Assembly (NCBI RefSeq): GCF_030013205.1
Contig: NZ_CP122648.1
From: Escherichia coli
Lineage (GTDB): Bacteria; Pseudomonadota; Gammaproteobacteria; Enterobacterales; Enterobacteriaceae
Length of the DNA: 64,000 nucleotides
Strand: one strand, 5' to 3'
Shown here: in pieces, positions 35,601 to 41,600 of the stretch
Position numbering within the stretch: the first letter of the stretch is position 1
Layout of the letters: the number at the start of each line of letters is the position of its first letter
Made by a program: the position numbers

Positions 35601-38600
35601 CAGGATAATTCAGCCAGCGATAATTCCCGTTCCTGCGTGCCATTCATTGCATGGCGTATGACGTCAATCATCCATGCAGACAGGTTTTGGTGAGCAAGTT
35701 GCCCGAGTGATTCGGAGGTCTGGTCGCGCAGCTGGTTGTCGCAGTGCCAGCACAACACCATTGCGCCGGTACCATAACGGTGAATGACGGTTTCACTGTG
35801 GTGATAATCGCCGTGTGGCCACTGGCAGGATTTAACATGGCGCAGTAACCAGTCAGACAATGCGCCAGCGCCACCAGCAGCACGAATCACTCGTTTGTCG
35901 CTGAAAAATGGCAGTAATGATTTATCCTCCGCCAGCGGCTGGCGAACGGCAGGAACGACCCCGGACGGCAGATTACGCATGCTTTTCGGTTCCGGCTCCA
36001 CCAGTACCCGGGTATTGTGGAATACCGGCATGGATTCACGGCCCGGCTTAACGATCACCAGCCCGAGTTCCGGTACCAGAACAGGTCGAAGTAATACCCG
36101 CACGTTACCTCCAGATGCGTTGCTGGAATGTGCGGGACGGACGCGGTGGGCGTTCGGAGTAAGGAAGCCTGACGGAGATTATCCAGTGACGGTAGTCGAG
36201 GCTAAGGGCTTTTTTAACCTCGCATCCGCGCCTGCGGTAACACTGAATCAGCCATTCAGCCTGTTCTTCAGTACATGGGGGATGCTGGTACCAATCAGAT
36301 TTAAATGCGTGAGAGCGCCGCCCGTGCCTGCTGGCAAAGACGGCTGAATTATCAGAATTGTGTAGTCTGGAATTTTGCGCCATCGGCTTTCTCCGGTGGC
36401 ACAGTGTTACTCAACAGGGGTTCAGCCCTGCGCTGAATTGTAGATGAATTCACTCATCTTCAAAAGCAGAAAAACCAGCCTTAATCCCAGCTTCTTTCAG
36501 AGACGGCAACGATGTGACAAATTCATTTGCACGCAAAATAAAACCATCCGTCACAAGCCCATCCACAAAATGAATTAACGCAGCTCCACTCTTCCTTTGT
36601 TGAGACTGTAAACATTTAATACGGCAGTGGCTGACAATAGCGCCATTCTCAACGCGCACAGTATAGAGGCCATCTTCACTAAAAATTTCACGTAATTCTT
36701 CGATTTTCATCAGCAGAATCCTTCTGGATAAATAACTTTCCCCTGTTTGGGGTCCATCCCTCTTCTCCCTGCGCGCTAACTAAGTAATATGATTCTATTT
36801 ACCCCTAACGGCCCCTCAAGAACCACAACCAACGGAGTACACAAAAAGCTAATCAACTACGCTACGCAATAAAAAACCCGCCGAAGCGGGTTAAGTGCGG
36901 GTGCGTTGAGGATGCCTGACACATCAGAGGTGGCGAGGGATTTCTCCCCCGCCAGGTCTCTTACTCCTCAGGTTCGTAAGCTGTGAAGACAGCGACCTCC
37001 GTCTGGCCGGTTCGGATTCGTACCTCGCAGAGGTCTTTCCTCGTTACCAGTGCCGTCACAATGACGGTTAAACAGATGACGATCAGGGCGATTAACATCG
37101 CCTTTTGCTGCTTCATAGCCTGCTTCTCCTGTGTAAGTTCACAGAGATATTGCAATTACCTCCGGATAAGTAAGGGGAGATTGCACTATGCAAATGCAGC
37201 ATCTGATGGTTGGCTATCCTAAGTACTACCAAACGGCCGATTATGCGTTGAGGCTTTCAGTGATGGCTGATACAGCAACAATGAGAATGAAGGCTCTGCA
37301 CTTCTGGGATAAACACGGTATTTCTGCAGCTTCTGAAGCCTTTGGCGTGTCCTGCCGCACGCTTTACTGGTGGCGTCAGTTACTGAACAAGGGAGGACCT
37401 GAGGGGCTAATCCCGCACAGTAAGGCACCTCTGGTGCGACGAAAAAAGCACTGGCATCCCGATGTGCTGAAAGAGATTCGACGGCTGCGAACAGAGCTGC
37501 CGAACCTCGGTAAAGAGCAGATTTTTGTTCGCCTGAAGCCCTGGTGCGAACAGCGCTATCTGGCCTGTCCAAGTGTTTCCACCATTGGCAGAATGATCGC
37601 TGCCGCACACGATAAAATGCGAATGATACCTGTGCGTCTGGGCTCGCGGGGGAAGGCACTGCTTGTCAAAAAGCGGTCTGCCAAACCCCGCAGACCAAAG
37701 CACTACCGCCCGGTAAAGACAGGTGAGCTCATTGGGATGGACGCCATTGAGCTCAGAATGGGCGAACTGCGTCGCTATGTCATCACCATGATCGACGAAT
37801 GCAGCAATTACGCGCTGGCGCTGGCTGTACCGTCGCTCAACAGTGATATCGTCAATCACTTCTTCAGCCGTGCAGCCCGGCTGTTCCCGGTCGGTATCAG
37901 CCAGATAATCACAGATAACGGAAAAGAGTTCCTGGGAAACTTCGACAAAACGCTGCAGGAAGCCGCTATCAAACACCTCTGGACCTATCCCTACACACCC
38001 AAAATGAACGCTATCTGTGAACGTTTTAACCGGACGTTAAGAGAGCAGTTTATTGAATTTAATGAGATTTTACTCTTTGAAGATCTGGCGCTATTTAATC
38101 AGAAGCTGGGGGAATATCTGGTGCTGTATAACAGCAAAAGGCCCCATAAGGCGCTCGCACTAATGACGCCCGTGGAATATATTTTAAGAGAGAACAAAAA
38201 TTGCAATATGTGGTGGACCCATACATCTCCTTGCCTTTCGGCACGTAAGAGGCTAACCTAGATTTGCCGTTCATAGATTGAGCCTCAGATTAATGTTAAG
38301 CGTCTTGCAGGACGCGTAATGTTAACTGGGGCTTTTCTCTATCTGCCTTTTGGTGTTCATGCCTGAGGCAGATAGCCTCAAGCACCCGCAGCAATTCTAC
38401 TTAACTCCCGTCACCTCGCCAATATAAAATCAATCAGAAAGGCGATCCATAAGAACAATAGCAAGACAATAAATTGCCACTACAGCCGCAATAGCCAGCG
38501 CGCATTTGAGAACCAGCACGATAACCTCCTGTATTGGACGTACACCAGCTCTGATAAATATGAGGCTGCCTCTTTAACTTCGCATTGCGCTACCAATCAA

Positions 38601-41600
38601 TAAAATCAGTGATGTTATCCAACCTAATTACATTAACTTCCCGTCCCAACTGGTTTTTCCAATATATCTCACGAGCGTTTTGTTCACCAGCACCGCTCCA
38701 CTCAATTACTCTTAAAGGCTTAGAGGTTAGGTAAGGTCGAATAAGCAGGTTAAGGTGAATATCGAGACCAGAGTAACCAAACAATATTATTTCTTCTGAT
38801 TCAAATAATGCAAACTGCAAATAATCCCAGTACGTAGAAAGAACATTAGATGCTGCTATAACTGACGGTTTTCTTTTTATATGAGTTAACACTATATGCT
38901 CACTAGGTTCATCTATGTCAAGAGTAAGTTGTGAGCGTGAAAGTTTTAAAACATTTTCATGCTGATTAATAAATAGTGGTGAACCATGCAAGTGCAAATA
39001 ATAACCAAACCTACGATTGTATTTCCGTTCGAGCGCTGCAGAGGAAAATCCGTGGCTTAGCATCCCATCAACTAAAACCCCATCATACCCGTTGAATATA
39101 TCATTATCTATGAATGAATTGTATAATAATTTGTCATAGTTTAATGTCGCGATATGTGAGTGTGTGTTCTTTACAAACTCCACAAGCGCATTTTCGAATC
39201 TTTGTGGCAAACCTTTATCGTAATTATGCAACCTGGTTGCAACTTTGTGAATATAAGTGGCGGTAATTTTGGGGAAGTTTAGTCCATCTTCAGTAAGCCA
39301 ATGCACGTTCCCCTCTCCAATTTGAGCAAGAGCTTTACAATATGTGACAGCCTGGTGAAGGGTATCCAACTCATGTTCTCCTTCTGGTGGACCTTGCCGC
39401 TGAAGACAACGCTCGATAAGTTGCTTGTGGATATCTTTTAAAAAATTGGGGCGATGCCAAATTTCTTCCAACGCTCTGTCTAAGGAGAAGTGAGCAGGAT
39501 CTAAAGCCATACCGAGACCGTTGCCGAATATTATTAATTTTCTTGCCATATAGGGGGACTCATTTTGGAATAACGCTGGATAGCGTAGCGCGACACGCTT
39601 AAGTTTAGGATTAATAGACATTCCGTTTGATTACACTCGTTATTACAAACTTGCATGCAAAGAAGCCCAAGCTGTTAGGTAAACAGAGACCGCAGTGGCA
39701 AGATAATCTAGATATAGCCTATAAAATCCAACAACAAATAGCGGCCTGTTTTCTATGACTTTTCTTTTCCCTAAATATCGCTTATCTAATAAAATGCAAT
39801 AATGTATTGCACAGTATTTAATGTGTATTAATATAGATAAGTATTGGTCTTATTTGATAACAAATCCTGAGCCTCAAAATGTCTGCTTTTCACACAAAAC
39901 CAACAAGTAGGCTATTTTTAGCTCTGTGCCGCGAAAATGTCAATTCATATCCGAACCAATACTCTTTAATTTCATTACCTGTGACAATTCTAGGCATATC
40001 CCTGATAGAACGCCAATACACGCTGCATAACTTCGCTCTTCCGGCACTCGCGACAGATTATGTTCATACGCCTGTCGTAGCGGCGTATTTCTCCGTCGGG
40101 TAATGTCCAGATAAGGCCCGGATCAACCACAACAGGTTTCTTCACCTTTGCCCTCGAGAGTTTTTTGCGGGCGTTTTGCCAGTCCTTACGAGCCTGTTCT
40201 GACGGGAACAACCCATAGCCAGAGTGATATACATCACCACTGGCAACCAGCTCTCTGGCAAGAATGCTCATCAGATATCTTGTCGCACCTGTTTTAGCTT
40301 CCAGTTGCCGTAGCGTCTCACGACCGCTCTGGCGCACGAGTTCCACCACCTGCCCTTTAATTTTTTCCCGCTCTTCTTGTGTAAAAACTTTTGCCACAAG
40401 TCCCCCTTAAAATTACCTCATGACCTGAAATCAACACTTATCCCCTGAAACCAGGCGGAATTTCGGTATCCGGTTCAGAAATATGATTCACACAACGCTT
40501 TATTGGCGAACGCCCCAGGCGAATAACCAGCTCATCCCATTTTTCGCGAAGCTTTGACGGACTCATGATGTTTTTGACCCAGAATGGATCTCGCTGTACC
40601 CGACCAAACATTTCGCAAATTTGTCTGTGGCTTCTGCCATCCAGCATCCGCATTGTGCGCACGTCATTGGCCCAGGCAGTCCAGTTAGGCTCTTTTGGTC
40701 GCATGATCTCGCCATCATCACTGGCGGCCTGTTCGTAGAGACCCACGATCCGCCCCCAGATCCACTGCGCACACGCCAAATCCTCCTGGCTACCCCACTG
40801 CCGTTTTTTCGCACTAAACACAACTGCGTCAGGGTGCCGGATTAAAAAATCCTGTTCAGCCGTCTGCTGGTCCGGTTGCAAAGCTTCCGGACGAAAAGTG
40901 TTTTTATTCTCTGTAGTAATCTCTGTTGTATTCTCTGTAGGATCATCGGGCCATTTTGACCCGATGACATTGGGTCGTTTTGAACCAATGGAGCGTTTCA
41001 TTTTGACCTCTTCCATCATGTCATTTTGACCTGATGGAGCGACGCATTTTGAACTGATGGATTCGCTCAATTTGCCACCATCTAAAAGATCGCTCCCGTA
41101 GTTGATCGTGTAGAAATTGGTCATGTCGCGCTTTGATTTATTGAGCTTTTCGCAACGCAAAAGCCCCAGCGTTTTCAGACTTGCAAACGCGCGCTTTAAC
41201 GTTGACTCTGACCAGAACGGGAACTGCGCCAGCCATTGTTCCGTTGTGTTGTAAATCCAGCGAACACCATCACATTCCATGCCGGAATTGGTATCTCTCA
41301 ACCAGTAATGCAGTTGCTGCAACACAATGGCTTCGTTTAAGCCAATCTTCATCGCAAGCTGTGTGTTTATAACCAGTGGGCGTTCAGCAAAAAGAAGGCT
41401 CATAATTCCATCCAGCTTTTTGTTGGTATTGCTGTCGATACGCAAGCTTGAAAGCAATTGCTTTTTCTATAAGTTCGTCAGTTTCACGATCTACAACGGC
41501 AGGATCTGCAAAAAGCAGTCCGGACTCCACCACATCGCCATATTCTTTATTTAACCCAGCGATCATGTACGTAATGCTCTTTCCGTCACTAATTTCACGA

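Follow-up and report, generated by a model that had tools for sequence, protein, structure and literature searches.

A solitary SIR2-like gene in a variable cargo slot of an Escherichia coli Stx2e prophage remnant is a candidate one-gene antiphage NADase

A stand-alone gene for a SIR2-like protein lies in the remnant of a Shiga toxin 2e (Stx2e) prophage of Escherichia coli (RefSeq assembly GCF_030013205.1, contig NZ_CP122648.1), within a stretch of 64,000 nucleotides (nt) that was analysed as a whole and is hereafter referred to as the window. The gene (38590-39549, minus strand) encodes 319 amino acids (aa) and is already known under the RefSeq name 'SIR2 family protein' (WP_000101549.1). From features that we observe directly, namely a SIR2 fold with conserved catalytic motifs, a gene that stands alone in a mobile, hotspot-like context, and defence genes in the same slot or beside homologues, we infer the nicotinamide adenine dinucleotide (NAD+) glycohydrolase (NADase) chemistry, the trigger, the oligomeric state and the protection against phages that we propose here. 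The case is evenly balanced, in our judgement, for the gene being a one-gene abortive-infection system, in which a SIR2-family NADase is carried as prophage cargo (a 'moron') between the replication/DUF977 genes and hokD. In such a system, the lysogen would make the protein and hold it inactive, probably as an oligomer, in the manner of its nearest structural relatives among SIR2 proteins. Phage infection would then supply a cue that acts on a helical insertion of about 100 residues (residues 23-130) or on variable loops and rearranges the assembly, thereby opening a putative NAD+ pocket formed by the G9-N10-G11 loop, N137/D139 and H188. The enzyme would convert NAD+ to ADP-ribose and nicotinamide, and the resulting NAD+ depletion would abort the infection.

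An initial annotation of the window, made from its sequence, had described a 343-aa open reading frame (ORF) with the motifs IIFGNGLGMA, ATLNYDKLL, YLHLHGSP and LFGYSGLD in this order, and both the maximal ORF (38590-39621, minus strand) and the ordered motifs are present. Its reading of the product as SIR2-like is borne out by domain and fold. The Pfam SIR2_2 hidden Markov model (HMM; PF13289) matches residues 156-302 of the 343-aa ORF (i-E 3.4e-5), with no additional Pfam domain, and also matches 63 of 70 diverse family members at E <= 0.001 (best 9e-13). An AlphaFold model with 38 homologues as input (predicted local distance difference test score 89.6, predicted template modelling score 0.89) shows a single domain, composed of a Rossmann-like core and a five-helix insertion at residues 23-130, in which the SIR2 fold spans residues 4-310 of 319. 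Fold comparison confirmed the Rossmann-like SIR2 fold and identified the SIR2 subunits of SIR2-HerA (Nezha) systems as the closest solved proteins, ahead of ThsA. The label 'ThsA-type' in the initial annotation is thus not the best description, as the Nezha SIR2 scores higher and neither SLOG nor TIR accompanies the gene. The structural matches share 13-18% sequence identity with the query, and a search of all Protein Data Bank (PDB) chains by sequence, with both the protein and a family profile, found no SIR2 protein, so that fold comparison alone ties the family to solved SIR2 proteins.

Across the 70 sequences, which reach down to 31% identity, residues G9, N10, G11, Y138, D139, L187, H188, G189, K227, L237 and D263 are invariant, and N137, H186, S190, P191, H218, H265 and N267 are at least 90% conserved. 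We take these positions to be the NAD-loop, Asn/Asp and His motifs of SIR2 enzymes, with putative roles for the individual residues. No four-cysteine zinc site is conserved in the same sequences; C71 is invariant in the close clade only, and no cysteine is invariant family-wide. The query therefore lacks the Cys4 zinc module of the sirtuin deacylases (CobB/Sir2Tm type), and its best structural matches are defence NADases, not deacylases. Both results argue against an NAD+-dependent protein-modifying enzyme (a deacylase or ADP-ribosyltransferase) that would alter host physiology, as a case of lysogenic conversion rather than immunity, and we regard this alternative as unlikely.

The start of the gene differs from that of the maximal ORF. 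The likeliest protein is the 319-aa product that most probably begins at M25 (ATG at 39549), in agreement with the RefSeq start call. Relatives from other genera open with MxRKLIIFGNG, and a GAG(G) Shine-Dalgarno-like element, kept in six genera, lies 8-10 nt 5′ of M25. The 24 in-frame codons upstream of M25 (39550-39621, minus strand) share 62% identity between alleles whose bodies are 89% identical; a stop codon breaks their frame in Serratia, and they are absent from Aeromonas, Pseudoalteromonas and others. Judged by frame and by conservation between alleles, this segment is more likely a 5′ leader than coding sequence. Beyond it, an AT-rich spacer (39622-39857, minus strand) belonging to the variable cargo segment is followed by a constant flank 3′ of the DUF977 gene (39858-39989, minus strand), which is common to prophages with other cargo. 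As the initial annotation had noticed, the gene sits in an AT-rich block, with a G+C content of 38.9% for the coding sequence, 35.7% for the upstream interval 39550-39989 and about 38% for the cargo segment, as against 48-52% for the flanks. The 370-nt upstream spacer, searched for a conserved RNA or small gene, yielded no Rfam match and no between-genus conservation beyond about 70 nt from the start. The best sigma-70-like site in a promoter scan (TTGACA and AAAAAT separated by 18 nt, at 39943-39914; 10 of 12 matches), a consensus match only, sits in the constant flank, and expression of the SIR2-like gene may for this reason be a property of the slot.

In the clade containing the E. coli gene, the SIR2-like gene is solitary. 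The annotation of the whole prophage includes no SLOG, TIR, HerA, pAgo or STAND gene, and clustering of the three nearest ORFs per side in 75 loci revealed no gene family common to the loci at least 45% identical to the query, with TIR domains not screened as such. The genes flanking the Serratia, Klebsiella and Aeromonas homologues are likewise unrelated. The gene thus stands alone, as first proposed, both in this prophage and among its closer relatives. The further suggestion that a partner had been removed by the neighbouring insertion sequence (IS) did not survive inspection of the junctions. The element is of the IS481 family (37130-38225, plus strand; RefSeq 'IS481 family transposase'), with imperfect terminal inverted repeats of about 26 bp, the ends TGTGTAAGTTCAC... 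and ...GGACCCATACA, and a 5-bp target duplication, TCTCC, at 37125-37129 and 38226-38230. Junction alignments showed that the IS-free loci of O55:H7 RM12579 and GPEC128 are continuous across the insertion site, and in O55:H7 RM12579 the SIR2-to-hokD junction is the same but contains neither the IS nor an extra gene. Because the insertion is clean, with its 5-bp duplication, and because the IS-free locus has no extra gene, the IS removed no partner.

These junctions bear on whether the gene is an orphaned, non-functional leftover of a SIR2-HerA-type two-gene system, its partner lost, for example, through the adjacent IS. Such an origin would fit the closest solved structures, which are SIR2 subunits that need HerA, and the presence of an IS beside the gene here and of a truncated ISEsa1 beside the 89% allele. 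The simple insertion and the IS-free locus speak against it, as do the absence of a HerA-like or other shared neighbour from the 75 loci, and an intact ORF with invariant catalytic residues and a uniform length over hundreds of clusters. Moreover, a decaying orphan would not be expected to retain the 57-82% amino-acid identity seen across genera (Escherichia, Serratia, Klebsiella, Aeromonas, Vibrio and Pseudoalteromonas). We consider a non-functional leftover highly improbable.

In Qin/Rac-like lambdoid prophages, variable cargo occupies the slot from DUF977 to the hok leader. The constant right side of this slot is the DUF977 family gene (39990-40397, minus strand) and its constant left side the hokD coding sequence (36961-37116, minus strand), and the SIR2 cassette of about 1.28 kb (38575-39857) lies between stretches that prophages with other cargo share. 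The left break lies about 15 nt past the SIR2 stop codon in the alignment; on the right, BLASTN homology begins at 39858 in one compared locus (L008, slot interval 5311-7630) and at 39924 in another (L009, 5300-9468). The K-12 locus agrees with the proposal that this is the slot in which Qin carries relBE-ydfV-flxA: there, relB-relE-ydfV-flxA lies between hokD and dicC. In strain 13KWH46 the slot contains two unknown genes and a DUF4145 protein that matches PD-T7-3 (E 4e-15), a validated defence gene, and in GPEC128 two unknown genes (333 and 320 aa) with no PADLOC match. Among 5426 complete E. coli genomes, 45 carry the SIR2-like gene, as an allele at least 99% identical (29 genomes) or one about 89.5% identical (16 genomes), and both alleles abut DUF977 where the context was read. 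Defence genes also adjoin relatives in other genera: a full-length Dsr1 (1277 aa, 1985 bits with PADLOC Dsr1) lies 330 bp downstream of a family member in Pseudomonas sp. N40 (L054 6248-10081), and the Serratia homologue adjoins a PDC-M36A-like gene. Of the initial proposal of an antiphage module, what stands is its plausibility from genomic context, with a PD-T7-3 homologue and relBE in the slot of other prophages and Dsr1 beside a relative.

The same slot invites a different interpretation, in which the gene serves the phage or itself, as an NAD-consuming addiction or exclusion toxin or as an enzyme of the early programme, for example one countering host NAD-derived immune signals. The slot otherwise holds toxin-antitoxin genes (relBE, hokD), the SIR2-like gene has the same orientation as the early rightward operon (dicC-ydaT-replication-DUF977-...-Q), and its best promoter-like site is in the constant flank, not in the cargo. 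We nevertheless find a selfish function quite unlikely, given that no antitoxin-like partner or conserved RNA was found, that homologues also reside in ordinary chromosomal islands outside phages, and that we know of no precedent for an anti-defence enzyme with a SIR2 fold.

Two side observations concern these loci. In E. coli KSC1031 (L110 3394-5960), the 89.5% SIR2 allele precedes, in turn, a truncated ISEsa1 transposase and the full Qin ydfW-flxA-ydfV-relBE-hokD block, so that the SIR2 cassette and the relBE cargo occur together in one prophage. In Pseudomonas sp. N40, two different SIR2 proteins adjoin.

The family is large and of uniform size. A search of 1.84 billion cluster representatives (E <= 1e-3) recovered 306 clusters at 50% identity, nearly all of 310-365 aa and matching end to end, and the 90%-identity collection contains about 800 clusters, mostly from Gamma- and Alphaproteobacteria. 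Members occur in Enterobacteria, Aeromonas, Vibrio, Pseudoalteromonas, Pseudomonas, Xanthomonas/Stenotrophomonas, Acinetobacter and many Rhodobacteraceae, with scattered representatives in Chloroflexota, Nitrospinota, Verrucomicrobiota and Bacteroides. The horizontal spread appears recent, because the Escherichia and Vibrio proteins are about 70% identical. Viral contigs (lambdoid, P2-like and other) carry the family, often beside integrases, with one member beside ogr of a P2-like phage and some near a Dam-like methylase; plasmids yielded one distant match only. This patchy, mobile-element-borne distribution is a further point against a protein-modifying enzyme. A literature search covering the protein accessions, PDC-S21, DUF977 and hokD hotspots of lambdoid prophages gave no report on the SIR2-like family.

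Several results weigh against an immune NADase. The gene is absent from all of 50,697 isolated phage genomes. The SIR2-like protein has no recognisable sensor domain, and the PADLOC SIR2 models score the query at 24 bits or less and every relative at 45 bits or less; the weak matches of the query are to the pAgo-associated SIR2 (Aga_SIR2, E 4e-6, in the SIR2 core), the sir2-herA SIR2 and the candidate PDC-S21. NCBIfam has no match for the query, and PHROGs returned phrog_7183 only, at a non-significant E of 0.29. The SIR2 protein of SIR2-HerA, the nearest by fold, has minimal NADase activity without HerA (PMC11472057). In four alphaproteobacterial loci (L058, L063, L067 and L069, at about 4340-5000), a gene of about 200 aa immediately precedes the SIR2 gene, abutting or overlapping its start (-3 to 13 nt). 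This gene, for which NCBIfam has no match and no other locus a copy, may be a clade-specific partner. Rhodobacteraceae homologues (33-40% identity) occupy fixed chromosomal sites beside housekeeping genes. In six loci (L082, L086, L089, L091, L092 and L099) the SIR2 gene lies just downstream of ettA, and in four others (L070, L073, L076 and L103, from three or four genera) it forms a pncB-SIR2-arfB array, on the same strand as pncB and separated from it by 44-58 nt. The product of pncB, nicotinate phosphoribosyltransferase, is an NAD-salvage enzyme. Such fixed sites could reflect a physiological NAD-dependent role. Finally, SliP of Campylobacter jejuni, a DUF4917 protein, is a reported secreted deacetylase acting on host histones (PMC10421069).

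The last two observations also favour protein modification, the Rhodobacteraceae genes through their position directly downstream of pncB or beside ettA, and SliP through DUF4917 (PF16263), which matches 15 of the 70 family members at E <= 0.001 (35 of 70 at E <= 0.1) and is carried as a precomputed match by many close homologues. The query itself, however, has no DUF4917 match at E <= 10. SliP is, like the query, small, stand-alone and SIR2-like, and the two are set apart here by description. At the fixed sites beside pncB and ettA, the SIR2 genes have diverged far more quickly than the genes next to them. In the ettA group, they share only 38-75% identity, as against 82-94% for the neighbouring EttA. 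This divergence is consistent with either rapid evolution or hotspot allele turnover, and looks more like such turnover than like a core gene. The recurrent upstream neighbours of about 550 and 430 aa in Rhodobacteraceae were considered as partners and rejected, being the housekeeping proteins EttA and PncB.

Two Vibrio variants, P0043 (506 aa, V. parahaemolyticus) and P0044 (541 aa, V. aestuarianus), have homologous N-terminal extensions of 190-220 residues. As a pointer to a sensor domain this was a dead end: the extension has no Pfam match and no detected database relatives, and is unrelated to the alphaproteobacterial gene of about 200 aa. The V. aestuarianus copy (L108 2990-4615) adjoins a P4-type integrase and a CHAT-domain gene.

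Comparison with known SIR2 systems places the abortive-infection NADase that we favour among, yet apart from, established defences. The SIR2 proteins of SIR2-HerA (Nezha; PDB 8w9l, 8yhx, 8j4u and 8uae) are of the same structural type as the query and closest to it by fold, with 14-18% identity, but the query is about 40-80 residues shorter and no HerA-type gene is present in the prophage or beside any relative examined. Unlike Thoeris ThsA (SIR2-SLOG), the query has no SLOG or Macro domain and no ThsB/TIR gene nearby, and its structural score with ThsA is below that with the Nezha SIR2. The initial annotation had thought a single-gene SIR2 effector unusual, a view that existing precedents do not support: DSR1 and DSR2 are likewise one-gene SIR2 NADase defences, often on mobile elements, and the 'sole-Sir2' protein (CRISIS) of about 440 aa is an NADase, a close homologue of which protects against T2 and T4 (bioRxiv 10.1101/2024.12.27.630466). 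The family described here is distinct from these and smaller. DSR1 and DSR2 are proteins of about 1000-1300 aa with large sensor regions, whereas the query has 319 aa and no Dsr1/Dsr2 PADLOC match at E <= 1. In 'sole-Sir2', compared by description only, an additional N-terminal part precedes a DSR2-like C-terminal SIR2, whereas the SIR2 fold of the query starts at residue 4 and fills the 319-aa protein.

The remaining systems are more distant. PD-T7-2 is an E. coli mobile-element defence whose A protein is DUF4917/SIR2_2 (Vassallo et al. 2022, PMC9519451), but it comprises two genes, one for a HerA-like ATPase, and no PD-T7-2 PADLOC model matches the query at E up to 1. The PADLOC candidate PDC-S21 is a single gene like the query, with a similar profile length (336), but the query reaches 23.7 bits (E 7e-6) over a partial stretch and other members at most 39.4 bits, too low for membership. 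SPARSA (SIR2-APAZ with a short pAgo) is reflected in the weak Aga_SIR2 match only, with no pAgo gene nearby, and Avs5 and the SIR2-STAND proteins are defined by a STAND NTPase and sensor repeats fused to SIR2, which the query lacks. The family thus differs from known one-gene SIR2 defences in consisting of a bare SIR2 domain, in having a Nezha-like fold without HerA, and in being missed by the defence HMM library used. A bolder reading, possible but well short of probable, is that it represents the smallest SIR2 immune protein, a 319-residue single-domain NADase that would sense infection alone and would descend from a Nezha-type ancestor, independent of HerA, as a one-gene cassette across Proteobacteria. 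Detection may then proceed through the helical insertion or a change of assembly state, and the cassette may have spread among lambdoid, P2-like and other prophages and islands.

If the gene protects against phages, it would provide a minimal model of the way in which a bare SIR2 domain is restrained and then activated, a problem that the large DSR, Thoeris, Argonaute and HerA systems solve with separate sensor modules. Protection would also add a widespread family, of about 800 clusters at 90% identity, to the defence catalogues, as PADLOC (2023), NCBIfam and PHROGs leave it unclassified. The slot between DUF977 and hokD in Qin/Rac-like lambdoid prophages would then stand out as a defence hotspot that merits mining. 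Practical relevance is modest, in that the gene is found in Stx2e prophage remnants of porcine edema-disease and enterotoxigenic E. coli strains as well as in O55:H7, and might influence superinfection of these hosts by other Stx phages.

The prophage that carries the gene in the window is short and defective and is inserted at ompW, with 100% identity to porcine E. coli strains such as K_EC180. The remnant measures about 22 kb (about 26355-48700) and retains stx2eAB, Q, rusA, a DNA methyltransferase gene, the immunity/replication region and three tRNA genes (one labelled 'tRNA-OTHER'). The majority of its structural genes are gone, and the terminase small subunit gene and one other are truncated. 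The gene order on the minus strand is dicC, ydaT, the replication gene, DUF977, SIR2, a small ORF, the hok leader, the IS, hokD and rem.

The small ORF (MLVLKCALAIAAVVAIYCLAIVLMDRLSD; 38430-38519, minus strand) is hydrophobic and has a GTG start and an AGGAGG Shine-Dalgarno sequence 5 nt upstream. It lies 70 nt past the SIR2 stop codon and just upstream of the hokD promoter region. The initial annotation had listed it as a 28-codon ORF with a consensus Shine-Dalgarno sequence; the ORF exists (29 codons including the GTG), but it is not a companion of the SIR2-like gene, as it sits in about 350 bp of constant hokD-side sequence common to 1601 E. coli genomes. It is also present beside unrelated cargo in GPEC128 and 13KWH46, and is annotated (WP_000960667.1) only in 13KWH46 among the genomes examined. 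Its frame remains open at 82% nucleotide identity, with conservative substitutions (VLALTCVLAIVAVLVIYCLVVAFMERFSD). The ORF probably encodes a real small membrane protein that is not SIR2-specific, and may be a previously unrecognised small membrane protein or toxin.

On the other side of the small ORF, a hok/sok regulatory leader (38220-38387, minus strand) matches the Rfam sok family (RF01794, 109 bits, E 4e-25). The IS sits exactly in the hokD Shine-Dalgarno region, the duplicated TCTCC corresponding to GGAGA on the coding strand, and parts the hokD coding sequence from its promoter and the sok/hok leader. From this arrangement, hokD is probably silent in this prophage, or else expressed from the IS. 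The transposase ORF (37188-38261) meets no stop codon inside the IS and runs 36 nt into the flank. Between hokD and rem, the segment 36871-36952 (minus strand) shows a sub-threshold Rfam match to the Hfq-binding small RNA IsrK (30.5 bits against a gathering score of 50, E 6e-4).

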